NCBI GenBank assembly: GCA_965223545.1
Contig: OZ245006.1
Span: 7,168,001-7,232,000, forward strand
DNA: 64,000 nucleotides
Source: Planctomycetota bacterium
GTDB taxonomy: Bacteria > Planctomycetota > UBA1135 > UBA2386
Direction: 5' to 3'
Positions 37,650 through 54,039 of this stretch are shown here, piece by piece. Positions within the stretch are counted from its first letter, which is position 1; each line of letters begins with the position of its first letter. The position numbers were made by a program, and so were the translations under genes. The notes under the pieces were generated by a model that searched no databases, was not told the origin of the DNA, and saw only the letters and a list, made by a program, of their open reading frames with translations.

Positions 37650-39824
37650 TCACTCGCCGACGACGGCGCGCAGGCCCTGCGTCCATCGCAGGGTGGCCGG
37701 GCCGAGCACGGCCGACTGGGCGTGGACCGCGATGCCGCGCACGGCGATGGCCCCGGCGATGGGCAAGGGCAGGTGCGCGATGCCGTGCGAATTCGAGACC
37801 CACGGCACTGCGGTCCACAGCATCGCCGGGTCGACCAGCAGTGTACAGCCGGCGCCGATCGGAGTGGCGGCGGCGGCGCCCCCGAGCAGCGTGGCGCCGG
37901 CGGTGCTGGCCGTCGACGCCGTGCGCAAGGCGAAGCTGCCGTTGCCGCGCCACGGGCGGCCGTAGGCCTCGAGCACGGCAGTCGGCGTTCCACAGCCGGT
38001 GCCGTACTGCGTCGCGATCGCCGCCGGCGTCGAGCCGTACACCCAGAGGTCGTCGGCGGTATTGCACGACATTCCGAGCGCGCAGGCGTGGCCACCGTAG
38101 AGCACGATCTGCTGGCGTGCGTGGTCATAGACCATGGCGTGCGCGATCCGCGGGGCCGGCGCCGCGGCGCCACCGGTGCGAGCCCAGTCGGTACCATCCC
38201 ACTCCCAAGTGTTGCTGCTGCTGGGCAGACCCGGGCTGGTGCGCGCACCGCCGAACAGGACGACGCGCTGGCGCGAAGCGTCGTACGCCAGCGCCGCTTG
38301 GCCGTCGGTGTCCGGAACCGTGGCGGGAGTGCGTTGCTGCCAGTCGCTGCCATCCCATTCCCAGGTCTCGCCGTTGAACAGCAGAACGTTTCCGCGCGCC
38401 GCGTCGTGGACCAGGGGGCCGTTGGCGAGCGGTTGGTTGGCAGGAGTGTGCAGGGTCCAGCCGGTGCCGTCCCACTCCCACGTCTGCAGTGCCGGATCAC
38501 CGCCGAACAGCACGACGCGATCGCGGGCGGAGTCGTACGCGAGACCGTGGCCGGCGCGCGGTGACGGGGCGGGAGTGGCCGTGTGCTGCGTCCACGCTGC
38601 GCCGTCGAACGACCAGAAGTCCCCGAATAGCTGCACCGGGGTACGACCGCCGAACAGCAGCAGCCGCTGGCGCCGGCTGTCGTAGACCAACGGCGAGAAG
38701 CGACGCGCCGGCGGGGCCACCGCTGGAGTGACATGGTGCCACGCACTGCCGTCCCATTCCCAGGTGCGGGCATTGACCGCGAGGAGGTCGCCAAACAGGA
38801 CGACTCGCTGGCGTGCTTGGTCGTAGCCGAGGGAGTGGCCACTGCGGCCCAGCGGGGCGTCGTCGATGCGACGCCAAAGCGCGCCATCCCACTCCCAGGT
38901 GTCGCGCAAGAACCCGCTCGGTGGCCAAATGCCGCCCCAGCCGCAGGTGAGAACGGTGCGTCGTCGGGCCGCGTCGTAGGCCATCGCCGCGCCGGTGCGA
39001 CCGCCGGGACCGGGTCCGGTGCGCTCGATCCAGCGCGCGCCGTCCCATTCCCAAGTGTCGTCCAGGAGCACTCCAGTGGGGCGGGTGCCACCGTGCAACA
39101 CGATGCGCTGCCGGTCCGAGTCGTAGCTCATGGCCGCGCCGCTCCGCACAGGCGGCTGGGGGTTGGCGGGATGCTCGCGCCAGGTGATGCCGTCCCAAAG
39201 CCAGGTCGGCGCGCCGGTCGCGGGACCCCTGGGAGAGCCGCCGAACAGCAGCATGATTTGACGAGAGGCGTCGTAGGCCAACGTCGCTCCGCTCAGTCGG
39301 GGCGGGCGAGCGGTTGGCGACAGCTGGGTCCAGGTGCCGCCGTCCCAGGTCCAAGTCTCCATGCCGAGGTTGCCCTGGTTGACCGCGATCACCAGGCCGC
39401 GGGCCACGTCGTACGCCATCGCCACCCAGTTGGTGACCCACGGCATGACCGCGACCTGGAGGTCGGTCCAATCATGGCCGTCCCACTCGAACGTGCGCGG
39501 GCGGCTGCCGTCGTAGCCGACCACCACGACGCGCCCACGGCGGCTGTCGTAGGCGCTGGCCAGATTCTTGAGCCGTGGTGGAGACGTGGCCGCCACGCGC
39601 GGGGTCCAGCGCGCCCCGTCCCACTCCCACGAATCGGTCAACCTGCCGTTGATCGCGTCGCCGCCGTGGAGGAGTACGTGGCCGCGCGCGGGATCGAACT
39701 CCGCGGCGGCGAGGCGCCGGCCGGTGGGCCACTCTTTGGCGACCCATTCCTGCGCGATGGCGCGGCAATCCGGACCCGAGACGATCGCCAGCATGGCCAA
39801 GAGGTAGTGCGGCCGGGAGAGCAT
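37650..39824 (-). CDS. Secreted Kelch-like beta-propeller repeat protein
   Basis: About 12 repeats of AYD..R.RVVLFGG...DTWEWDG..W; signal peptide; C-terminal YGTGC domain. Confidence 0.88.
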   Translation of the reverse strand: MLSRPHYLLAMLAIVSGPDCRAIAQEWVAKEWPTGRRLAAAEFDPARGHVLLHGGDAINGRLTDSWEWDGARWTPRVAATSPPRLKNLASAYDSRRGRVVVVGYDGSRPRTFEWDGHDWTDLQVAVMPWVTNWVAMAYDVARGLVIAVNQGNLGMETWTWDGGTWTQLSPTARPPRLSGATLAYDASRQIMLLFGGSPRGPATGAPTWLWDGITWREHPANPQPPVRSGAAMSYDSDRQRIVLHGGTRPTGVLLDDTWEWDGARWIERTGPGPGGRTGAAMAYDAARRRTVLTCGWGGIWPPSGFLRDTWEWDGALWRRIDDAPLGRSGHSLGYDQARQRVVLFGDLLAVNARTWEWDGSAWHHVTPAVAPPARRFSPLVYDSRRQRLLLFGGRTPVQLFGDFWSFDGAAWTQHTATPAPSPRAGHGLAYDSARDRVVLFGGDPALQTWEWDGTGWTLHTPANQPLANGPLVHDAARGNVLLFNGETWEWDGSDWQQRTPATVPDTDGQAALAYDASRQRVVLFGGARTSPGLPSSSNTWEWDGTDWARTGGAAAPAPRIAHAMVYDHARQQIVLYGGHACALGMSCNTADDLWVYGSTPAAIATQYGTGCGTPTAVLEAYGRPWRGNGSFALRTASTASTAGATLLGGAAAATPIGAGCTLLVDPAMLWTAVPWVSNSHGIAHLPLPIAGAIAVRGIAVHAQSAVLGPATLRWTQGLRAVVGE

Positions 39825-39990
39825 CGTTCGCGATGGTAGTCCAACGCAGGCGAAATGCCTTGCAGGTCCGGCAGGCCCTGCGGTGGGCGCACGCTTTCGC
39901 TAGGATCGTCGAGACAACCTCCACGTGCGCGCCGGTTGCGAGGTGCTCCTCGTGCAGGGGCGCGTTGACCATCGGGAGAGGAGCGACCGA

Positions 39991-42603
39991 ATGCAGTGCG
40001 ATACGCGTGTCTGGTCCGTTCTGGCGGCTGCGGCTGCCCTGCTCTCGCCCGGCGCGCTCGCCCAGCGCCAGTTCGCCGAAGAGAGCCACCTGAAGAGCTA
40101 TCTGCCAGCCGGGGGAGGCCTCACTTACGACTACGTCGCTTTCGACGTCGACGGTGATGGCGATGTCGATCTGGTCGAGGCGACGTCATCGCAGAACCGC
40201 CTCTACTTGAACGATGGCGCCGGCATCTTCACCGACGTCTCCTCCCAGCGGATGCCGAGCGGTCGCGACACGTCGACGTCGGTGGCCGCAGGAGATGTCG
40301 ATGGCGACGGTGACGTCGACCTGCTGTTCGGCAACGCCGTCAACTCCGTCCGCCAGAACCGGCTCTACCTGAACGACGGAAGTGGTCGTTTCGAGGACTT
40401 CACCACGGCGCGCATGCCTGCGGATGCCGAGCAGACGACGGCGGTCGAGCTCGTCGATGTCGACGGTGATGGCGATCTGGACGCGCTGATTGCCAATTCC
40501 GAGTTCGGGGCCGGTCGCAACCAGCTCTACCTGAACGATGGCGCTGGTACCTTCGTCGACGTCACCACGACGCACATGCCGGAGGATTTCGACGCCTCGA
40601 CGGCCCTGGCAGTCGGCGATGTCGACGGCGATGGCGACGCCGACGTGGTCGTGGCCAACAACACGTACTTCGGGCCTGGTGGTCAGCCAAACCGCTTGTA
40701 TCTGAACGATGGAAGTGGCCGGTTCACGGACGGTAGCACCGGGCGGCTGCCGGCCGAGCAGAACTTCTCACGGAGCGTCGCACTCGGCGACCTCGACGGG
40801 GACGGCGACCTCGATCTGGTCGTCGGCAACTCGACCCGCTTCAGCGGCAACAACCGGCTCTACCTCAACGACGGCAACGGCGTGTTCGGCGAGGCGCCGC
40901 CCGGCCGGCTGCCCTTGGTGGCGACCTTTCGACCAAACGTCCTCCTCGTCGACGTCGACGCGGACGGCGATCTCGACATGCTGTGGGGCGTGTCCGGTCA
41001 GGGCCTGCTGTTCCTCAACCAGGGTGGGGTCTTCGATGACGCGACCGCGACTTGGTTGCCGCCGATCAGCGGCACGACCGGTGCGCTGGCCGCCGCCGAC
41101 GTCAACGGCGACGGTCGCGTCGACGTCGTCTTCGGCAAGGACTCGGTGGTCGGCGACAACCAGCTCCTGCTGCAGAGCGGCGCCGGTCGCTTCATCGACA
41201 CCAACGTGCCGCGGTTCAACAACCGCCGCGGCGGCAACGTCGTGGCGGCGATCGACGCCGATGGGGACGGCGATCAAGACCTCGTGGCGGGCGGCTTCTC
41301 CACCAGCGGCGCGGTCACCTACAACGATGGCAACGGCGTGTTCCGCGTGGTCCCCGGTAGCTTCCCCGGCGTGGCGACTACGGCCATGGACATCGCCATC
41401 GCCGATGTCGATGGCGATGGTGACCCCGACGTCGTGTTCGCCAATTTCCAAGGGACGAATCGGCTGTTCCTCAACAATGGTGGTCGCTTCACCGATGCCA
41501 CCGTCGGCCGCTTGCCCCCCGATGCCGATGACAGCTTCGGCGTCGCGGTCGGCGATGTCGACGGCGACGGCGACGTCGATCTGCTGTTCGGCAACGGCGC
41601 TGGGGACCTCGACCGCCTCTACCTGAACGATGGCGCGGCTCGGTTCACCGATGTCACCGGGGCGCGGATGCCGTTCGAGTTCGAGACCACGCGGGCCGTC
41701 CGCCTGGCAGACGTGGACGCGGACGGTGATCTCGACTGCGTCCTCGCCTCTTGGGGGCAGACGCGCTTGCTCCTCAACGATGGCGAAGGCACGTTCGCCA
41801 ACGCCACCGCGGGGCGCATGCCGGTGGACACGGAGTTCTCCTCGGGGCTGACGATCGCCGACATCGACGCCGACGGCGACGCCGACTTGCTGATCTCGAA
41901 CTCGGTGGGGTCGGGGCCCGTGGAGGAAAACCAACTCTACGTCAATGACGGCATGGGCAACTTCACCGACGTGAGCGCGGCGCAGCTGCCAACCACCGGT
42001 GAATCGACCGCGCGGATCGAAATCGGCGATGTCGACCTCGATGGCGATCCCGATCTGCTGCTGGTCAACCCTCGGGGTACCGTTCGCCTGCTGCTCAACG
42101 ATGGCGGCGGAACGTTCACCGACGCCACCGATTCGCGTTTGCCGAGCCGGCGGGCGTCGGCGGCGTCGGCGGCGCTGGCCGACTTCGACGGCGATGGCGA
42201 CCTCGACTACGTGCTCGGTGCGCTCGATCGGCTGTTCGTCAACCGGCACCGGCAGCTGAGCGCGCCGCTGTTCGCGGGCCCGTCGCGCGGCTTCGAACTG
42301 GTGTTCCACGCGGAGCCCGGCTACGCCAACGCGTCGCACACCGCGATCCCGGCGCTCTCTCTTTCGCTTGCACCAGCGCCGCTGGTGCTGTCGCCGTGGG
42401 GGCGGTTGTACTTGTCGCCGACCGCGCTGATCCCGCTGCCACCGGTGTTGATCGACCAGGTGACCGGAACGGCGCAGCTGAACGTGCCGGTGCCGCCCTT
42501 GCCGGCGTTGGCCGGTCGAGCGCTGTTCGGGCAGGCCCTGATCGTCGATGGCGCCACGGAGCGGGCCCGGTTCACCAGCTACACGGCGGATCTGTTCCTC
42601 TGA
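39991..42603 (+). CDS. Secreted FG-GAP/VCBS repeat protein
   Basis: Many GDVDGDGDVDL...NRLYLNDG.G.F repeats; ATG 39991 with GAGGAG SD; signal peptide. Confidence 0.92.
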   Translation: MQCDTRVWSVLAAAAALLSPGALAQRQFAEESHLKSYLPAGGGLTYDYVAFDVDGDGDVDLVEATSSQNRLYLNDGAGIFTDVSSQRMPSGRDTSTSVAAGDVDGDGDVDLLFGNAVNSVRQNRLYLNDGSGRFEDFTTARMPADAEQTTAVELVDVDGDGDLDALIANSEFGAGRNQLYLNDGAGTFVDVTTTHMPEDFDASTALAVGDVDGDGDADVVVANNTYFGPGGQPNRLYLNDGSGRFTDGSTGRLPAEQNFSRSVALGDLDGDGDLDLVVGNSTRFSGNNRLYLNDGNGVFGEAPPGRLPLVATFRPNVLLVDVDADGDLDMLWGVSGQGLLFLNQGGVFDDATATWLPPISGTTGALAAADVNGDGRVDVVFGKDSVVGDNQLLLQSGAGRFIDTNVPRFNNRRGGNVVAAIDADGDGDQDLVAGGFSTSGAVTYNDGNGVFRVVPGSFPGVATTAMDIAIADVDGDGDPDVVFANFQGTNRLFLNNGGRFTDATVGRLPPDADDSFGVAVGDVDGDGDVDLLFGNGAGDLDRLYLNDGAARFTDVTGARMPFEFETTRAVRLADVDADGDLDCVLASWGQTRLLLNDGEGTFANATAGRMPVDTEFSSGLTIADIDADGDADLLISNSVGSGPVEENQLYVNDGMGNFTDVSAAQLPTTGESTARIEIGDVDLDGDPDLLLVNPRGTVRLLLNDGGGTFTDATDSRLPSRRASAASAALADFDGDGDLDYVLGALDRLFVNRHRQLSAPLFAGPSRGFELVFHAEPGYANASHTAIPALSLSLAPAPLVLSPWGRLYLSPTALIPLPPVLIDQVTGTAQLNVPVPPLPALAGRALFGQALIVDGATERARFTSYTADLFL

Positions 42604-42668: not shown

Positions 42669-43310
42669 ATGGTCTCCGCCACCGAAGCGCTGCAACGTTT
42701 GATCGCCGGCAACCGCCGGTTCGTCGCCGACGCTCCTCAGAGCGCGGGCTTCACCAGTGCCGCGCGGCGCGCCCAGCTCGCCGGAGGTCAGCAGCCGTTC
42801 GCCATCGTGTTGGGTTGCTCGGATTCGCGAGTGCCGGCCGAGATCGTCTTCGACCAGGGCTTGGGCGACCTGTTCGTCATTCGCGTCGCCGGCAATGTCG
42901 TTGCGCCGTCGCTGGTCGGCAGCGTCGAATTCGCCGCCGAACAGTTTGGCACCCGGTTGGTGGTCGTGCTCGGTCATTCGCGTTGTGGCGCGGTGATGGC
43001 CACTCTGGCCCAGATGGAGCAGTCGGAACCTGCGTCGCCGCCGTCGGCCAACGTCGGCTCGATCGTCGACCGCATCCGGCCCGCGCTGCTGCCGCTGCGC
43101 GGTGCGCCCGCCGAGGATGGCGACGCGGCCTTGGCGGCTGCAGTGCGCGCCAACATTCGCGCCTCGGCCGACCACTTGCGGCACGGCTCCGCCGTCCTCG
43201 AGCGGTTGATTGCCGAGGACGGCTTGCTGGTGGTGGGCGCGGAGTACGAGCTGGGAACCGGCGAAGTGCAGTTCTTCGACGGCGTGCCGGCCGGAGTCGG
43301 GCCGGCGTGA
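42669..43310 (+). CDS. Beta-class carbonic anhydrase
   Basis: GCSDSRV, DLFVIRVAGN and GHSRCGA motifs. Confidence 0.95.
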   Translation: MVSATEALQRLIAGNRRFVADAPQSAGFTSAARRAQLAGGQQPFAIVLGCSDSRVPAEIVFDQGLGDLFVIRVAGNVVAPSLVGSVEFAAEQFGTRLVVVLGHSRCGAVMATLAQMEQSEPASPPSANVGSIVDRIRPALLPLRGAPAEDGDAALAAAVRANIRASADHLRHGSAVLERLIAEDGLLVVGAEYELGTGEVQFFDGVPAGVGPA

Positions 43311-43684
43311 GCGTGCCGGCAGGCCGTTGGCTGCTCGGCGCCGCCGTGGGGACGGCGGTCGGGGTCGCAATCTACTGGCTCAGTTTACGCAACGGGATCC
43401 ACGTGCTCGTCGCAGTCGGCGCCGGGCTGGCGGTGGGGGCGCGGTTGGGCACTCGCGACCGCAGCATCGCGCGCGGCGTGCTGGTGGCCGTCCTGGCAGT
43501 GGTCGCGAGCATCCTCTGCGAGTGGTGGTTTCGACCGTTCTCCGCCGACGGCTCGCTCGGCTACTTCGTGCGCCACCTCGGTGACCTGTCGGCCAACTCG
43601 ATCGCGTCGCTGATCGGCGCCGCAGCGCTGGGCTTGTACTTCGGCAGCGGCCGGCACGCGCGCCCGCCATCGCCGACTCATTGA
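43307..43684 (+). CDS. Small hypothetical membrane protein (about 4 TM)
   Basis: GTGA overlap with the carbonic anhydrase stop; hydrophobic 125-aa product. Confidence 0.7.
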   Translation: MSVPAGRWLLGAAVGTAVGVAIYWLSLRNGIHVLVAVGAGLAVGARLGTRDRSIARGVLVAVLAVVASILCEWWFRPFSADGSLGYFVRHLGDLSANSIASLIGAAALGLYFGSGRHARPPSPTH

Positions 43685-43805
43685 CGCGCCGAGGCGAGCC
43701 TTCAGCTCTGGAGCTGGAGGTTGGTGGGAGCCGTTGAGCCCGGAGGATGCGGAGCGCGCGCACCCTCGGCCTCTGGATCGAGAGCAGCGGGGCCGCCCGC
43801 AGCTC

Positions 43806-45838
43806 GCCGAGTAGCCGCGGGGGGTTGCCCCCCCGCAGCTCTCACAGAACCGGACTTGTGGGTCACACATCCGGCTCTTCAGGACGGTATCCCCCAAAGG
43901 GGCCGCCAGTCGTAGCGGCGCTCGTCCCAGAGCTTGGAAAGCGACACCAGCCGCTCAGCAAACCACTGATTGGGATAAGCGCGTTTGATCGCTCCCGAGT
44001 TGCTCTGCCACCACGTGCCACGCCGGCCAAACGCGGTGCGTGCAGCCGACTGCCAGCTGCACCCACGGGCGACAAGGTCTCGGAAGAGGTATCGCGGTCT
44101 CTTCTTCTGCCGAATGATGATCGCCCGCAGGCGTCGTCGAATATGGCCATCGAGATTCCGCAAGGTCCGCCACGCGGCCTTCGTGATCAGCTTGAAGTAG
44201 CCGATCCAACCACGGAGGTAACGGTTCAGTCGTTCGATGCACCAGGACAGCCGACCACCCCAGGACCGCGGCGTAAGCTCACGGATTCGGGCGTCGATGC
44301 GATCCAGAGTGCGACGGGACAACTGCACCGTCAGCCAGCCCTTTCGAGTTGCGCCTACGCGAAACCCGAGGAAGTGCCGGCGATGGGCCAGGTCGACGGA
44401 ACTCTTCGCTTCGTTCACTTTCAGTCGCACGCGACGTTCGATGAACCTGCGAATCGAAGCCATGACCCGGTGTCCTGAGCGCTCGCTACCGACGTAGATA
44501 TTGCAGTCGTCGGCGTAGCGCACAAAACGCAACCCGCGTCGTTCCAACTCCCAGTCCAGTTCGTCCAGGACGATGTTGGACAGCAGAGGTGATAGCGGGC
44601 CGCCCTGGGGCGTTCCTTCTTCCGTGATGACGCGGGTGCCATCTGGAAGAACCACGTTCGCTTTCAGCATCAGGCGGATGATCCGCAGCACCCGACGGTC
44701 CTTCACCTTCTGAGCCAGCCGGTCCAGGAGGCGTTGGTGATGGACACGGTCGAAGAACTTCTCCAAATCGATGTCCACCGTGTACCGCCGACCCTGCTTC
44801 ACGTAACCCGCTGCTTCGGCGATCGCTGTGTGGGCTCCCCGCCTCGGCCGGAAGCCGTGGCTGCTGTCGTGGAACGTCGGGTCGTAGATCGGCTCCAGAA
44901 TCTGGCGCACGGCCTGTTGGACCCAGCGGTCGATCACGGTTGGAATCCCGAGACCCCGCTGCCCACCACTGGGCTTCGGGATCCACACCCGACGAATATC
45001 GCCGGGCGCGTAGGTCTCCATGAGCAGAGCATCGCGGAGTTTCGGGAGCAGGTGTTTCGCATGACGCTTGACCTCTGACACCGTCTGTCCGTCGACGCCC
45101 GGGGCGCCCTTCTTGCTTACGACATGTGCCAGTGCGCTTCGCAGGTTGCCCTGCTCCGCGACCAGCTCCAGCAGATGGCAGTAGCCGTCCGCTGGCGGCG
45201 GAGCCGATTCCGATCGATGGCTGCAATCCGTCGTAGGCACCGACGTGGACTTCGTGGCAGATTCGTCTGCCCTTCCGGCCACGCCGTCCCCTTGCGGGCT
45301 CTCGGCGAAAGCGAACTGCAGTTGCCGTGGTTTCGGCTTTCTCATCCTGTCACCCCCTTCGCTCCACCGGCATTACCCGGCTTCATCACTACTACGGGGT
45401 GATCCGACTTCTCTGCATGCCTTGGTGGGTCGTCGTTGCCTCCTCCCCACCTACCGCTCGAAGCGGACACACAGAGATCTCCCTGGGTAAGAACGCAGAG
45501 TTTCGCGCCGCCGCCGGTTCCAGTACTCCGAGGTCGCGACTGGATATCGGGCGTCACGTTGGATGGCACGCTGACCCAGACCTCGAGAGCCTTACGGAAC
45601 TTCGCTTTCGCTCGGTGCTGCGCTGCGTCTAGGGCTTCCATCCCACACGACCTCGCGGGAACAGCACGGCACGGTGTCCGTCCTGTTCTGGCATCCCGGA
45701 TCAACACCGCGCACCGCCCTCTCGGACGGCACACGGCTCCCCTTTCTGCCTCGTGCAGCTGCCTTCGACTCATGGTTTCCTCCAGTACGGATCCATAAAG
45801 AACTTTCATCTTCAACTCTGCGCCCATGCCAGGCGCAA
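43806..45838 (-). mobile_element. Group II intron, class IIC-like, 2033 nt
   Basis: 5' end TTGCGCCTGGCATGGGCG; TTCTTACCCAGGGAGATCT at the DI/DII junction; short DV GAGCCGGATGTG-TGACC-CACAAGTCCGGTTC; DVI ending CTACTCGGC. Removing it restores a 34-bp inverted repeat, which fixes the boundaries. Confidence 0.9.
43879..45345 (-). CDS. ltrA: Group II intron reverse transcriptase/maturase (no endonuclease domain)
   Basis: GAPGVDG, RxLGIPTVIDR, GFRP, GTPQGGPLSPLLSNI, RYADD, FLGF; maturase region LRGWIGYF. Confidence 0.96.
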   Translation of the reverse strand: MRKPKPRQLQFAFAESPQGDGVAGRADESATKSTSVPTTDCSHRSESAPPPADGYCHLLELVAEQGNLRSALAHVVSKKGAPGVDGQTVSEVKRHAKHLLPKLRDALLMETYAPGDIRRVWIPKPSGGQRGLGIPTVIDRWVQQAVRQILEPIYDPTFHDSSHGFRPRRGAHTAIAEAAGYVKQGRRYTVDIDLEKFFDRVHHQRLLDRLAQKVKDRRVLRIIRLMLKANVVLPDGTRVITEEGTPQGGPLSPLLSNIVLDELDWELERRGLRFVRYADDCNIYVGSERSGHRVMASIRRFIERRVRLKVNEAKSSVDLAHRRHFLGFRVGATRKGWLTVQLSRRTLDRIDARIRELTPRSWGGRLSWCIERLNRYLRGWIGYFKLITKAAWRTLRNLDGHIRRRLRAIIIRQKKRPRYLFRDLVARGCSWQSAARTAFGRRGTWWQSNSGAIKRAYPNQWFAERLVSLSKLWDERRYDWRPLWGIPS

Positions 45839-46120
45839 CATCACCATCAGCGCCGGTCCAAGACGAGGCACAGGGTGCGACCGACGCCGATGGTGACGGA
45901 GCTGCGGGCGGCGGTCCCGGTTCGTGGTGCTTGGATGTGCCGCTTCGACTGAAGGTCGCGGCATCGAAAGAGCGCGTTTCATCGCGAAACGGTTCGCACT
46001 CGCCTCAGCCTTGGAGCTCGAGATTGTTGGGAGCAGGAGTGCGTGCGATTCACCGGCCGGTTTCGCGGATTGTCGGATTCTTGCATGCTGACTTCCTTTT
46101 GAGTAAGGTCGCTAATTCAA

Positions 46121-46819
46121 ATGACGGGCAAGGCAGTTCGATCGGGGCGCGGGGGACGACGCCGTGGGGTGGTGCAGGGCGAGCTGCCGTTTCGGCAGTG
46201 GGGTGGGGCTCGGGAGGGGGCTGGGCGGCCCAAGGTGAGTGATGAGACGGTGCCGCACTTGGCGCGGGGGGTGTTGGTGGCGCGGTATCCGTTGCACTTG
46301 ACGGTGCGGTTGCGTCGGGGGTTGCCGGGCTTACGGAATGCGCGGACGTACTGGATGTTGGTGGAGCGGATCCGGGCGGGGTGTGGGCGGTTCGGGTTTC
46401 GGTTGGTGGAGTTCTCGGTGCAGCGCGATCACTTCCACCTCTTGGTGGAGGCGAAGGACCGGGAGGCGTTGACGCGGGGGATGACCGGGCTGTTGGTGCG
46501 GATGGCGCGGGGGTTGAACAAGCTGTGGGGGCGCTCGGGGCGGGTGTTTGCCGAGCGGTTCCACGAGCGGGTGCTGCGCTCGCCGACGGAGGTGCGGCGG
46601 GCGTTGGTGTATGTGCTGCAGAATGCTTGGCATCACCGGCAGCGGCCTCGGCAGGCGATCGACGTCTACTCGTCGGGGCCTTGGTTCGACGGGTGGCGTG
46701 AGGTGGTGGAGCTGTCGGAGCCGGTGGCGCGGCCGACGGTGCGGGCGCGGACTTGGCTGCTGAAGGGTGGATGGCGGCGATCGCGGGGGCGGTTGGACTT
46801 CCGCGAGCGGCCGGCGTAG
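46121..46819 (+). mobile_element. Y1 HUH transposase (IS200-like / REP-associated tyrosine transposase, RAYT-like)
   Basis: LHLTVR, FSVQRDHFHLLVEA (HUH), G.VFAERFH and catalytic YVLQN. Confidence 0.85.
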
Positions 46820-49187: not shown

Positions 49188-50369
49188 TCAGCGAAAGTAC
49201 CGAGTCTGACTCGATTTTCTCGGCGCGCGCTTCTGCACCACACCCGCCGCCGCGAGCTCTTGCGCCAGCGATCGCATGTACGCATCGACGGCGCGCGGAT
49301 TGAGGTGGCGGTTCGTCGCGCTGGCGAACGGTTGTTCGATGCATAGATCGATCTCGATGGTGCGCTGCCCCGCGGTAATTGCCGCGAGGTTGTCGCGCAT
49401 CTGCCGCGGATTGGTGCGGTAGTAGTGTCCGTTCAACCGCATGACGGTCTCGCGATCACCCCCCTCCCGCCAACGCCAACGCGTCACCGCGAACCCGGCC
49501 CCGTGCGCCGCACTGAGTGAGCGCATCTCCGCGAGCAGCGCGCGCGTCAGGGCGATGCCGTAGCGGGTTCGCGGACTCGGTGGAGTCAAGTAGAGCTGAC
49601 AGTGCACCTTCTCGCTGGCGAAATGCTCGTTGCGAAACGCCGGTTGTGTGTCCCAGCGCTGTTGCCAGGTGTCGGCCGCGACCGCTCCGCAGTCCGGCGC
49701 CGGCTGATAGGGTGCGGGCAGGTGTCGCCGTTCCCAGTCTCCGTCCCGGTCGAGGTGACGTGCGAGAAGCAGCGTGAGAAGGTTCAGTCCAGCGTCGCCG
49801 ACCGGATCTCCCATTTGCTCGGACGGCCCGCACAGCACGCCTTCCTCGAGCCAGAACGTCGGCTTCGGCACGCCGTTGCGCGGATAGTGGGTCGGAAACA
49901 GGTTGTTCCAGACGTCGTTGGCGGGCGATAGCCAGACCAGGACGAGGTCGGCACCGAATGCAGCGAAGTACTCCCGCAGGACCAGCAATTGCTGATCCTG
50001 GCCCCAGCCGCGTGCGCCCAGCGAAACGACCGTGACGCCGGGGATGTGGCGCCGCAAGTGGTACTCGAGCCGTGCCTCCGGCATCTCCTCCGGTCCACAG
50101 GCCGATGCTTCGACCTGCGAATCGCCGACCAGCAACACGACCGGATCGTCCCGCGCCATCGCGAAAGGCCGCCCCCGCAGGCCGAGCTGATTCAAGGGGT
50201 GGGTTGCCGAAGGCGCGCGCCACCCCGCGCGGACCAACGGCGGTTCGCAGCACAGCTCGGCGAACAGAGCTGCTATCATCAACGCCGCGAACGTGCTCCC
50301 CAAGACGAGAGCCGCCCGCAGTACGGGCCGAGGACGGAGATGGTAGCCAGAGTGGACGGAACGAGGCAA
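49188..50369 (-). CDS. SGNH/GDSL hydrolase-like membrane-anchored protein
   Basis: C-terminal part of the 1229-aa track ORF: NQLGLRG, VGDSQVE, GWGQDQQ, NDVWNN, RHLN; start (TTG 50369) uncertain. Confidence 0.72.
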   Translation of the reverse strand: MPRSVHSGYHLRPRPVLRAALVLGSTFAALMIAALFAELCCEPPLVRAGWRAPSATHPLNQLGLRGRPFAMARDDPVVLLVGDSQVEASACGPEEMPEARLEYHLRRHIPGVTVVSLGARGWGQDQQLLVLREYFAAFGADLVLVWLSPANDVWNNLFPTHYPRNGVPKPTFWLEEGVLCGPSEQMGDPVGDAGLNLLTLLLARHLDRDGDWERRHLPAPYQPAPDCGAVAADTWQQRWDTQPAFRNEHFASEKVHCQLYLTPPSPRTRYGIALTRALLAEMRSLSAAHGAGFAVTRWRWREGGDRETVMRLNGHYYRTNPRQMRDNLAAITAGQRTIEIDLCIEQPFASATNRHLNPRAVDAYMRSLAQELAAAGVVQKRAPRKSSQTRYFR

Positions 50370-50420
50370 CGTGACTCGAGACGACGTCCGGTGTTCGGAA
50401 CGCGTGCGACCGATAGCCGC

Positions 50421-52586
50421 GTGCTCCCGCGGCGTCACAGCAATTGGACTGCCGCCGCGGTTGTGCTCGGTTCTTCGCTCGCGGCGCAGTCGACCTGGGC
50501 CGATGCGTCGCGGCACGTGGTCGCCGATCCGTGGGCAGTGGAGATGGCCTACGACACGGTGCGTCAACGACTGGTCGCCACTATCAGTCGCACGCCGAAT
50601 CCTTCCTACTCCGGGTTGCTCGAGACCTGGGAGCACACCGCGGGGTGGACGCGGGCACTGCCGGCGGCCGGCCCGCCGGACGGCGTCGGGTCCGCGATGG
50701 CCTTCGATGAGCAAAGAGGGCGCACGGTCCGCTTCGGTGGCATCACCGGCAGCTGGATCTCGCACGATGAGCACTGGGAGTACGACGGCTTGCAATGGGT
50801 CTCTCGAGGAGGGACCCGGCCGCCCGCGCGTCGCGGGCATTGCATGGTGTTCGATTCCGGCCGTGGAGTGATCGTGCTCCACGGTGGGGAGGACTCGGCC
50901 ACTCGACAGGCGCACTCCGACACGTGGGAGTTCGACGGGAGCGCCTGGACCCGCGCCAGTGCGGTCGCGAGTCCGTCCGTCGACGCGGCGATGGCGTACG
51001 ATCCGCTGCGGCGGCGCGTCGTGCGCTACGGTGGCTGGCAGTCCGGCCTGTCGATGGCGCGCACTCTGGAGTGGGACGGAAGCGTGTGGCGTCGTGGGCC
51101 CGATGGGCCCGGGGCGCGCCATGGCAGTCGGCTCGCGTTCGACGCTGCCCGAGGGGTCATGGTGATGTTCGGTGGCACCGATGGGACCCGTGTGTTCGAT
51201 GACACTTGGCTCTACGACGGCGTGTCGTGGCGACAGGCCAGCCCGTCCGCGCCCATGGGGGCGCTGCACAGCGGCGCGATGGCCTACGATGCAGGCCGCG
51301 GCCGCGTCCAGTACTACGGAGGACTGACGGCAGCACGGCGGCCGGCAACCGGGTTGTGGGAGTGGGACGGCAGCGACTGGGTCGCGCGCACGGTTCCGGT
51401 GTTGCCGGGCGGTGGTGTCGGTGTCGCGACTTGTTACGACGCATTGCGCGGGCGGGTCGTGCTGCACGGCGCCGCGGGGACCCACGAATGGGATGGCTAT
51501 CGGTGGCACCGCTCGGTCGCTGCGTCCGCGCCGAGTTCCGCCGGCAACCCGGCGATGGCCTTCGACCACACCACCGGCCGCAGTGTCCTGTTCACCGCGC
51601 ACGAGCCGGGGAATCCGACTTGGTGGTACGACGGCGCGCGGTGGTGGCCCGCCGCCGCGGCGGTCTCTCCCCCAGTGCGCGATGCCGCGGCGCTCGCCTT
51701 CGATGCGGCGCGGGGTGACATCGTGCTGTTCGGTGGGCGCGTGCCGGGATCGAGCACGCTGATGGCGGACACCTGGCTGTTCGATGGCAGCACGTGGCGG
51801 GCGCACGCGGGCAGCGGTCCTCTGGGCGCATGGGGCAATGCGATGGTCTACGACCCGGGCCGGCAACGCGTGGTTCTGGTCACCGGCCGGAGCTCCGCGC
51901 TGGGGACGGACACGTGGGAATGGGATGGCACGCAGTGGAGCTTGCGCGCGGTCGGGGCTGCTCTCCAGTGGAGCGATCCGAGTCTCGCGTACGACCCGCG
52001 GATCGGGCGGGTGGTGTCGTGGGTCGGCGCCGCCGGTGCCGGTGGTGCTCTTTGGCAATGGGACGGCACGTCGTGGACCGCGGTCTCGATCCAAGAGGGA
52101 CCGGGGGCGGGGACGGGCCAGAGGCTCGAGTTCGACGCGCGGAGCAACCGCCTGTTGCTCTACGAGGGAGGCCGGGACAAGACTTGGGTGCACGACGACG
52201 CCGGCCGCGTGGCCCTCGAGCTCGCCTACGGCACGAGCTGCCCGCCAGCCGGTGGGCTGGTGATGCGCGCCCTGGGACCGGCCTCGGTCTTCGCTCCGGG
52301 CTTCGTGCTGGATCTGCACGGTGTTCCGCCGGGCGGCGCGGCCACGATCGGGCTGAGCGGCGGGCCTGCGCAGCTGCAGCTCGCCGGGTGCACGCTGTTC
52401 CTCGACCCGAGCCGCTGGTTGGCGGCGCTGCCCTTGGCGCCACGGGCCAATGGCTTCGCTGCGGTCTCGGTGCCGACCCCACCGGCGGCGTTGGGAGTGG
52501 AGCTGTTTGGCCAAGCGTTCGCCCTCGACGCGAGCGCGCTCCGATTGCTCGGTTCGCGCGCCTTGCGCTTGCGGATCGGCTTGTAG
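50421..52586 (+). CDS. Secreted Kelch-like beta-propeller repeat protein (paralog of 37650-39824)
   Basis: Repeats MAYD..R.RVV..GG...TWEWDG..W; C-terminal YGTSC domain; GTG start approximate. Confidence 0.87.
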   Translation: MLPRRHSNWTAAAVVLGSSLAAQSTWADASRHVVADPWAVEMAYDTVRQRLVATISRTPNPSYSGLLETWEHTAGWTRALPAAGPPDGVGSAMAFDEQRGRTVRFGGITGSWISHDEHWEYDGLQWVSRGGTRPPARRGHCMVFDSGRGVIVLHGGEDSATRQAHSDTWEFDGSAWTRASAVASPSVDAAMAYDPLRRRVVRYGGWQSGLSMARTLEWDGSVWRRGPDGPGARHGSRLAFDAARGVMVMFGGTDGTRVFDDTWLYDGVSWRQASPSAPMGALHSGAMAYDAGRGRVQYYGGLTAARRPATGLWEWDGSDWVARTVPVLPGGGVGVATCYDALRGRVVLHGAAGTHEWDGYRWHRSVAASAPSSAGNPAMAFDHTTGRSVLFTAHEPGNPTWWYDGARWWPAAAAVSPPVRDAAALAFDAARGDIVLFGGRVPGSSTLMADTWLFDGSTWRAHAGSGPLGAWGNAMVYDPGRQRVVLVTGRSSALGTDTWEWDGTQWSLRAVGAALQWSDPSLAYDPRIGRVVSWVGAAGAGGALWQWDGTSWTAVSIQEGPGAGTGQRLEFDARSNRLLLYEGGRDKTWVHDDAGRVALELAYGTSCPPAGGLVMRALGPASVFAPGFVLDLHGVPPGGAATIGLSGGPAQLQLAGCTLFLDPSRWLAALPLAPRANGFAAVSVPTPPAALGVELFGQAFALDASALRLLGSRALRLRIGL

Positions 52587-52692
52587 CAGCCCGCGTCGCT
52601 CGGTATCTCTCGGCAAGGTTGCCCGGGCCGTGATGTGCAATCGGCGGCGGCGTCCGCACCGTGGGGGCGCGTGTGCGTACACTCTCCGCCCA

Positions 52693-54039
52693 ATGACAAC
52701 GGCACCAGTGCGGTGTCTGGGCCCCTTGCTGTGCGCGACGGCTCTCGCCGCCGCCCAGCCGATCGGCCCGGGCTTCTGGGAATCGCGAGCGGATCTCGGC
52801 ACGGCGCGCCAGGAGGTCGGCGCCGCGGTCCTCAACGGGTTGGTCTGCGTGGTGGGCGGTCTGTTGCCGTCGCGCACTGCGACCGACTCGGTCGAGCGCT
52901 ACGACCCGAGCAGCGGCCAATGGAGTCGGGTGCCGCCGATGCCGGTCGCACTACACCATTTGGGCGTGGCCTCGGCGCAGGGCCGGCTCTACGCGATCGG
53001 CGGCTATCGCAGCGGTTTCGTCGGCCGTGCCGAGTGCTACGCGTTCGACTCGGTGGCGGGGGGATGGGCGCGCGTCGCCGACCTGCCGCGGCCGCGCGGT
53101 GCGCTGGCGGCGGTGGAGATCGGCGGCCTGGTCTACGCGGTGGGAGGCGTCGACCCGCAGCGCGGCGTCGTCGGTGATCTCACCGTGTACGACCCTGCGA
53201 CCAACGCGTGGCGAGCGCTGGCCCCGATGCCGACCGCGCGCGAGCATCTCTCCGCCGCGGCCCTCGGCGGCAAGCTGTACGTCGCCGGTGGTCGGGTCGG
53301 TGGCAGCCGCCTGTTCGACGTGCTCGAGTGCTACGACCCGGCGACCGACACCTGGACCCCGCGCGCGCCGATGCCGACCGCGCGCGGCGGCGCGGGGGCC
53401 GCGGTGCTGGATGGGCGGCTGCTGGTCATGGGCGGTGAGGGTTCGGCGCTGCCGAGCGGGATCTTCCACCAGACCGAGGAGTACGATCCAGTGGCCGACC
53501 GCTGGACCGCCCGCGCCGACATGTCGGTCGGGCTGCACGGCATCTATCCGGTCGGCCTGTCGCAGGAGATTCTGGTGGCGGGTGGCGCGACCATCGCGGG
53601 CTTCCGCGCGGTGGCGACCGTGCTCGCCTTCCGCAACCTGCCGACCGGCGTGCAGCGCTACGGGGCGTCGACCCCGGGTTGCGCTGGCCCGATCTGGGCA
53701 TTGCCGAGTGGGATGGCGATGGCGGGGGCGATGCTCGGCATCGCGACTGCCACGCCTGCGGCACCGCCGGCCGCGGCCGGTGCGTTGCTGGTCGGCGGTC
53801 AGGCGGACGTCGCCGGGACTCCCGTGCTGGGCGCCGGTGTCCACGTTGGGCTGGGCGGCGGGGTGGTCGTGCTGCCGCTGACCACGAGCGCCGCCGGCGG
53901 GGCGGCGACGGCCTTCACCATCCCGGCTGGTGTCGCCGGGGCGCAGGCGTTCGCACAGTTGTTGTTCGCGACCACGCCGGTCTGTGGTGGCGGAGCTACG
54001 CTGGCCGGCACCGACGCGCTGCAGATCACGGTGCAGTAG
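52693..54039 (+). CDS. Secreted Kelch-repeat protein
   Basis: Six canonical Kelch repeats (LYVAGG...YDPATDTW...PMPTAR); C-terminal YGASTPGC domain. Confidence 0.9.
   Translation: MTTAPVRCLGPLLCATALAAAQPIGPGFWESRADLGTARQEVGAAVLNGLVCVVGGLLPSRTATDSVERYDPSSGQWSRVPPMPVALHHLGVASAQGRLYAIGGYRSGFVGRAECYAFDSVAGGWARVADLPRPRGALAAVEIGGLVYAVGGVDPQRGVVGDLTVYDPATNAWRALAPMPTAREHLSAAALGGKLYVAGGRVGGSRLFDVLECYDPATDTWTPRAPMPTARGGAGAAVLDGRLLVMGGEGSALPSGIFHQTEEYDPVADRWTARADMSVGLHGIYPVGLSQEILVAGGATIAGFRAVATVLAFRNLPTGVQRYGASTPGCAGPIWALPSGMAMAGAMLGIATATPAAPPAAAGALLVGGQADVAGTPVLGAGVHVGLGGGVVVLPLTTSAAGGAATAFTIPAGVAGAQAFAQLLFATTPVCGGGATLAGTDALQITVQ

Follow-up and report, generated by a model that had tools for sequence, protein, structure and literature searches.

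A recently mobile class C group II intron in Y1-associated hairpins, and a probable clade-wide shift from terminators to palindromes of other selfish elements

The 64,000-nt stretch of DNA analysed here (the window, G000:C1:7168001-7232000) lies in an 8.1-Mb genome of 70% GC, probably that of a planctomycete to judge by the sources of near Y1 homologues, and carries a group II intron inserted into one arm of a long hairpin upstream of a Y1 transposase gene. Judged by its sequence, the intron belongs to class C (IIC), as its reverse transcriptase (RT) groups with class C and an endonuclease domain was not detected. The explanation that we hold likely is that a recently active class C intron retrohomes by the IIC rule (an upstream DNA stem plus a four-base EBS1-IBS1 pairing), that its clade targets palindromes other than terminators, and that its landing pad here is formed by hairpins of Y1 leaders that were also captured in the end of an ISL3-like element. 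On a wider scale, it is likely that a multi-phylum clade of class C introns has shifted from terminators to the DNA hairpins of other selfish elements, namely REP-type repeats, insertion sequence (IS) ends and Y1-associated palindromes. Hairpin targeting by IIC introns is itself known; it is the class of target that is shifted. The literature searched yielded no description of this clade or of IIC targeting of REP, RAYT or Y1 hairpins, and an earlier description is possible. The elements of the locus, in window coordinates, are the following.

43688..43791, plus strand: left modules of the mosaic leader common to the Y1 copies, with two short hairpins (left boundary approximate; BLAST matches to other Y1 loci begin at about 43688-43693)
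43792..43805, minus strand: final 14 nt of the 3' arm of the rebuilt hairpin (hairpin A), with G 43805 as the 3' exon position
43806..45838, minus strand: class C (IIC) group II intron, 2,033 nt, TTGCG...CTCGGC, present in 14 copies of 99.5-100% identity; Rfam RF02001 at 45492-45662, 73 bits
43806..43845, minus strand: domain VI, with the bulged A at position -7 (43812) in the domain V-VI fold
43846..43878, minus strand: domain V, short class C form, AGC triad at 43874-43876; fold of domains V-VI z -6.5
43879..45345, minus strand: intron-encoded RT/maturase, 488 aa, YADD motif; Pfam RVT_1 and GIIM only; TIGR04416 373 bits
45562..45565, minus strand: EBS1 (CAUC) in a domain I loop, complement of the G(A/G)TG in which 14/14 sites end
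45839..45912, minus strand: 5' exon part of the rebuilt hairpin A (5' arm, 20-nt spacer, 20 nt of the 3' arm)
45839-45842, minus strand: IBS1 (GATG), within the 5' exon part of hairpin A
45913..46120, plus strand: linker and proximal leader of the Y1 element, recurring at other Y1 loci
46121..46819, plus strand: Y1 (HUH) transposase, 232 aa, HFH at 104-106, Y164-x-x-x-N; Pfam Y1_Tnp E 1.1e-5

Elsewhere in the window, read from the sequence without a family scan, 37650-42603 and 49989-54039 encode large, apparently secreted beta-propeller proteins that contain Kelch-like and VCBS-like repeats, and 42669-43310 a beta carbonic anhydrase.

Deletion of positions 43806-45838 by script restores an 88-nt inverted repeat with 34-bp arms (31/34 matched) and a 20-nt spacer, in agreement with a sequence-only reading of the window. 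As that reading also proposed, the three mismatches become G.T wobbles on the minus (intron-sense) strand, giving 31 Watson-Crick and 3 G.T pairs and a DNA folding energy of -46.4 kcal/mol compared to -40.4 kcal/mol on the plus strand. Its position within the 3' arm leaves 20 bp of stem above the intron and 14 nt below; the arm pieces 43792-43805 and 45899-45912 are 100% complementary, and the end of hairpin A is 208 nt upstream of the Y1 start codon (46121), close to the roughly 210 bp first estimated. No T run and no attC core are present in the rebuilt hairpin, and a terminator scan of 43600-46200 returned one site against 2.1 expected and none at the hairpin, which upholds the early description of a hairpin lacking a U-tract and attC cores.

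The boundaries of the intron are fixed independently of the hairpin, as all 14 copies have the same ends (5' TTGCG, 3' CTCGGC) while their flanks differ. The empty 88-mer occurs at 100% identity at three further places in the genome. A contig of run X4 contains a joint that omits exactly the 2,033 intron bases, but since this contig may derive from an empty hairpin elsewhere in the genome, and since X4 comes from the same study as the best holders, the joint is not counted as independent support. In the same run a loose contig end at window 43805 has a flank absent from the 14 assembled sites, which suggests at least one further insertion site in the X4 sample. A kin search of 60 related genomes detected class C RTs in four, all of canonical types and 46-49% identical, and hence offered no orthologous empty locus.

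The RT/maturase scores above the TIGR04416 cut-off of 300 bits, and a Pfam scan found RVT_1 and GIIM alone, without an endonuclease domain. Its closest solved relative is the GsI-IIC RT (E 2.8e-119), with the E.r. maturase also near, and the RT phylogeny bears out the IIC-like identity proposed at the outset, placing the protein in class C and outside the attC branch. A short domain V with a CGC triad is a feature of class C and is also seen in the control loci. The present intron keeps the short form and has AGC instead of the canonical CGC, a mark of its subclade, whereas the compared loci behind terminators have CGC. The first and penultimate bases covary, with G opposite A in 93 distinct introns and U opposite G in seven introns and the present one (window 45838 and 43807). 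The U/G type occurs on several branches (loci L028, L099, L100, L118, L128, L167 and L168); the penultimate base of L028 is G despite a misassigned 3' end in this comparison. The first and penultimate bases of group II introns are in contact, and the observed covariation fits this. Class C introns are characterised by an EBS1-IBS1 pairing of only 3-4 bp, an EBS3-IBS3 pair and the lack of an EBS2; EBS3 was not located in the intron, and the +1 base is a purine at 14/14 sites. A clade member on a Novosphingobium plasmid (L250) is listed as plain class C in the supplement of PMC8919778, and the 5' end catalogued there for this member falls within one base of the 5' end called here. Assignment to g6 or to the U1/U2 classes was considered and rejected, as g6 introns are described from clostridia and gammaproteobacteria and outside class C (PMC4244168) and a member of the clade is catalogued as C; the intron is thus set apart from g6 by description. 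The genome also encodes a second, single-copy group II-type RT with an FADD motif (G000:C1:4530512-4532117), 37% identical over the matched part, which served as outgroup.

Eleven of the 14 full copies occupy hairpins upstream of Y1 transposase genes. Two others occupy a related hairpin located immediately within one end of an ISL3-like element, of which a third copy is empty, and the last lies antisense within a sulfatase-like ORF, where no hairpin is convincing (local folds of -7.0 kcal/mol at best); both the ISL3-like and the sulfatase-like label are readings of translated ORFs. A census of the intron-free genome yielded 27 hairpins of the family, 23 in Y1 leaders, three at the ISL3 end and one solitary, of which 13 are occupied and 14 empty. 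The expectation that the hairpin would be multicopy and enriched near Y1 genes was therefore correct, with 23/27 no more than about 1.1 kb upstream of a Y1 start once the introns are removed from the coordinates. All 14 junctions read G(A/G)TG|purine, and EBS1 (CAUC) pairs with G(A/G)TG at each of them. The GTGATG|GAGCTG position anticipated for other copies accounts for part of the set: eight junctions are GTGATG|G, and the remainder fall at four others (two TCGGTG|A, two AGGGTG|G, one TCGATG|G and one TTGGTG|G). Since some 98,600 G(A/G)TG|purine sites are available genome-wide and 13/14 copies nevertheless sit within 27 family hairpins, this concentration is not due to chance. A T tract (at least four T in the last 10 nt) precedes none of the 14 sites, so that, as predicted, the other copies do not follow ordinary terminators; a cGNAg mini-hairpin is likewise found at 0/14 sites of this genome.

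All 13 hairpin insertions are on the better-folding strand, even though the opposite strand has matching sites too. The energies of the two strands are -46.4 and -40.4 kcal/mol for hairpin A, -35.5 and -28.6 for hairpin B, and -40.6 and -36.1 for the ISL3 type. A wobble T converts GACG into the matching GATG, and in one copy that retains GACG the intron is inserted 3 nt earlier. With the origin placed near 4.02 Mb by GC skew, 9/13 hairpins with the lagging-strand template as their receptive strand are occupied, compared to 4/14 others (p 0.057), a suggestive, non-significant bias in the same direction as that reported for class C in PMC8919778.

The 14 introns differ at only 16 columns, which at different sites points to recent mobility, and one identical haplotype is found in hairpin A, in hairpin B and in the sulfatase-like gene. 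As the Y1 genes are only 92-97% identical, most intron insertions appear to be independent and younger than the spread of the Y1 copies. For the two ISL3 copies with an intron, site and haplotype are the same and each copy has an 8-bp target duplication, so that the two may have moved as a pair. One Y1 leader (G000:C1:6350460-6357308) contains three stacked intron copies in both orientations.

The Y1 transposase is present in 12 full copies and one fragment, and the 12 genes are intact, with a dN/dS of about 0.18. The RAYT-like label originally given to it was dropped, as the protein scores 35.7 bits against NF047646 (RAYT), for which the cut-off is 80. Its signature, read from the sequence, is HFH with Y-x-x-x-NA, compared to Y-x-x-x-NP as given for RAYTs in PMC6006769. 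No match to the protein was found among PDB sequences, nor to the hairpin in the plasmids searched. In the leaders, repeated modules form mosaics, with hairpins A and B in alternating orientation; the left end differs from copy to copy, similarity ceases at about the stop codon, and no tnpB was seen after it. Among 61 genomes searched, 20 contain the Y1 family, with up to 47 matches, some in tandem, in one related genome. A degenerate hairpin pattern matched three of the 61, all among those 20, and the reversed control matched none. The hairpin is also found with homologous Y1 genes of three related genera. The genome G017 has 23 hairpins and 27 Y1 matches, with 19/23 hairpins at most 700 bp upstream of a Y1 gene among the matches listed; its homologous hairpins carry cGNAg in the loop, and it gave no intron match. 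In G030 a hairpin variant flanks the Y1 gene on both sides. Family hairpins measure 62-100 nt, have a CGTC motif paired inside the stem, and lie away from a Y1 gene in only 4/27 cases. By these features the hairpin is a Y1-associated palindrome, REP- or TIR-like by association and not a dispersed REP as defined in PMC3733652, and the multicopy Y1 family with its mosaic leaders matches neither the IS200 nor the low-copy RAYT description. A member of the hairpin family lies just inside the end of the ISL3-like element (G000:C1:2607059-2608501 and the two intron-bearing copies), and locus L100 has a similar hairpin at an IS1182-like end, as if palindromes like those of the Y1 family had been captured by other IS.

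Related loci were collected by scans covering the best 78 of 590 and the best 80 of 595 confirmed stretches, and searches of genomes and plasmids added more. Typing of 236 loci by domain V gave 188 AGC, 28 CGC and 20 unassigned. The target set, which required a called 5' end and a 60-nt flank and from which duplicates and four tandem-intron sites were removed, comprised 96 AGC and 14 CGC sites. A cGNAg mini-hairpin within 30 nt of the junction was found at 55/96 AGC and 0/14 CGC sites (19/410 random flank positions), a T tract at 4/96 AGC and 8/14 CGC sites, and a 3' exon pairing back at 34/92 AGC and 0/11 CGC sites (background 75/410). When the sites were reduced to one for each 80% RT cluster and controls from plasmids were included, the T tract was present at 2/44 AGC compared to 17/21 CGC sites and the mini-hairpin at 30/44 compared to 0/21, contrasts to be read with an AGC set gathered by similarity to the query intron, related introns that are non-independent and controls partly from low-GC hosts. 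The EBS1-IBS1 match extends across the clade, holding in 61/97 introns compared to a mean of 15.8 and a maximum of 27 in 2,000 permutations. In an RT tree of 63 rows (30 sampled AGC, 30 CGC and 3 outgroups) a single clade unites the AGC rows (SH-aLRT 100); it is nested in class C and separate from two integron-borne introns. The latter, L285 and L286, lie between class 1 integron cassettes or adjoin blaIMP-4 and form a separate branch; their attC label is taken from context, their 5' ends not having been found by pattern.

The targets of the clade include CGTC-type REPs and IS ends. In the alphaproteobacterial genome G061, 5/8 copies lie in or are stacked at a repeat with CGTC-type REP anatomy, for which 16 empty pattern matches were found. 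A Sinorhizobium plasmid copy is located in a hairpin whose neighbour we take to be an IS21-type end. Relatives of 88% and 75% identity lie in 3' arms of long hairpins, and the hairpin of the latter resembles the family described here. Conversely, CGC introns of the same order and phylum lie behind T-rich hairpins, so targets of that kind do exist in these hosts. A clade-wide association with IS is unsupported, with transposase neighbours at 21/75 AGC and 1/14 CGC loci (p 0.17; based on a single ORF picked heuristically on each side). At several loci (L037/L188 in G061, L225, L227 and L232) the intron directly follows domain VI of another intron, forming tandem copies; at L232 it is a CGC intron that lies behind a different one. 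The suggestion of a lineage homing to REP/REPIN-like or transposon-end hairpins stands for the clade, which shuns terminators and uses REP-like and IS-end palindromes, but not for the hairpin in the window, which is no dispersed REP or REPIN.

The retrohoming explanation takes from the comparisons above the number of copies, the sites and strand used, the match of EBS1 to IBS1, the independence of most insertions, the placement of the clade and its shift in targets; its steps of binding, stem opening, reverse splicing and priming come from known IIC biochemistry. IIC recognition consists of a DNA stem and a 4-bp EBS1 pairing (PMC10190682, PMC1702495). The solved IIC particle is described as holding a DNA stem of about 12 bp and pairing four EBS1 bases, with a fifth pair that skips one base (PMC10190682). 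A G at -6, able to make this fifth pair, is present at the eight commonest sites. By analogy, the RT-RNA particle would bind the folded single strand, probably on the lagging-strand template; the lower stem would open and free G(A/G)TG for pairing with EBS1; the intron RNA would then reverse-splice into the hairpin strand; and cDNA synthesis may be primed at the replication fork, a primer proposed because the protein lacks an endonuclease. Opening of the stem is an assumed step, as the solved target has a single-stranded spacer between its stem of about 12 bp and IBS1 (PMC10190682), whereas IBS1 here is predicted to be paired inside a longer stem. Preference for the G.T strand is proposed because it offers a longer continuous stem and the wobble T makes the commonest site. 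The intron would gain an intergenic, self-renewing target. Counting against this explanation are the one copy of 14 that lacks a convincing hairpin, the 0/14 sites with the cGNAg motif typical of the clade and a replication-strand bias that is no more than suggestive (p 0.057).

An ordinary IIC intron of no special preference, hitting the most stable intergenic G(A/G)TG hairpins that a genome of 70% GC supplies, is an improbable alternative. It accords with the class being described behind terminators "or other inverted repeats" (PMC1702495), with the variable insertion position within the arm and the ectopic copy, and with the simple class C entry of a clade member in the PMC8919778 supplement; it does not account for the T-rich targets of CGC introns in the same order and phylum or for a target contrast that tracks the RT clade. 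The retrohoming explanation also has to be separated from the descent of all copies from one or two old insertions that were copied along with a duplicating or transposing Y1 leader, which is very improbable. The leaders are indeed tandem mosaics with clearly duplicated modules, and at one locus two adjacent units carry the intron at the same position. Those two copies, however, differ in haplotype, divergence among the introns is far below that of their Y1 hosts, and there are five junctions across three hairpin types and one gene, so that this origin is largely refuted, the two ISL3 copies excepted.

A functional coupling to the Y1 element, in which the intron would exploit products of the HUH transposase (single-stranded DNA, nicks or 3' ends) or simply ride along, is judged quite unlikely. 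We grant equally small odds to the sublineage being a hyperparasite that uses a single-stranded substrate or primer from the HUH transposase whose hairpins it occupies. The Y1 leaders hold 11/14 copies, the Y1 genes are intact at a dN/dS of about 0.18, and the hairpin also occurs with Y1 homologues in three related genera; the two ISL3 copies, with their 8-bp target duplications and common haplotype, may have ridden on an IS. Against coupling, the Y1 of this family was found at only 1/158 related intron loci (many with short flanks), the 75% identical relative occupies its similar hairpin at an IS1182-like end without Y1, G017 has 23 such hairpins and 27 Y1 matches and gave no intron match, and intron haplotypes do not track Y1 loci. 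The original link between hairpin and transposase is thereby narrowed: 13/14 copies are in the Y1-hairpin family, but two of these are in the ISL3 end, one further copy is in a gene, and a Y1 of this family is almost absent from the flanks of the related loci.

Reviews distinguish three target modes of bacterial group II introns, namely homing sites, terminators and attC (PMC4424553). The locus and its clade suggest a fourth niche that is reached with the same IIC machinery. The 13 filled and 14 empty near-identical hairpins, used on one strand and in several registers, form a natural series for how IIC particles read DNA shape, and present a three-level nesting of selfish elements, an intron in a hairpin in a Y1 or ISL3 element. 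Such an intron, which recognises hairpin shape together with four bases and whose EBS1 varies in nature, could serve for programmable insertion into structured DNA. Described classes are, moreover, a poor match for the multicopy Y1 family and its mosaic leaders.

Compared to the terminator-type IIC introns (B.h.I1, GsI-IIC and the E.r. intron), the intron has an RT closest to the GsI-IIC RT and E.r. maturase among solved structures, and shares the lack of an endonuclease domain, the short domain V, the 4-nt EBS1-IBS1 pairing, the 5'-exon hairpin and the many near-identical copies. It differs in its AGC triad (CGC in the loci compared), in 14/14 sites without a T tract, in its ends (U...G-C instead of G...A-Y), and in inserting within the 3' arm of a long palindrome, whereas terminator-type introns insert after the hairpin. 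The IIC-attC introns (S.ma.I2 type) insert into attC arms (PMC7923331, PMC4424553) and, as described in PMC7923331, likewise enter a long, imperfect DNA hairpin in its 3' arm, on a single strand only, and exploit a recombination-type substrate of another mobile system. In contrast to these, the present sites have no attC cores, the junction is G(A/G)TG|purine where attC introns have TTGT|T, and the RT falls apart from the two integron-borne introns.

The REP, REPIN, BIME and TIRtron systems with their RAYT or TIRYT genes (PMC3733652, PMC6006769) resemble the Y1 family in that palindromes of alternating orientation cluster next to a Y1 gene, that this gene has a class 2-like Y-x-x-x-N motif and that the conserved core begins with a CGTC motif. 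A REP is described as a palindrome of 20-40 bp with an unpaired GTAG or CGTC foot and many dispersed copies (PMC3733652), whereas here the arms are at least 34 bp long, CGTC is paired in the stem and only 4/27 copies lie away from Y1. Class 2 RAYT genes are given as low-copy (PMC6006769), unlike the multicopy, 92-97% identical gene found here. The IS200/IS605 elements, described with fixed ends, copies of about 99% identity and a Y-x-x-x-Q motif (PMC6006769), share the multicopy Y1 transposase. The Y1 element differs from them in its variable mosaic left ends, its lower identity between copies, its Y-x-x-x-N motif and in that no tnpB was seen. Finally, RmInt1 is a group II intron resident in an IS, and introns of this type likewise live in another mobile element; the intron described here instead recognises a non-coding hairpin shape plus four to five bases, and not a long homing sequence in a transposase gene.
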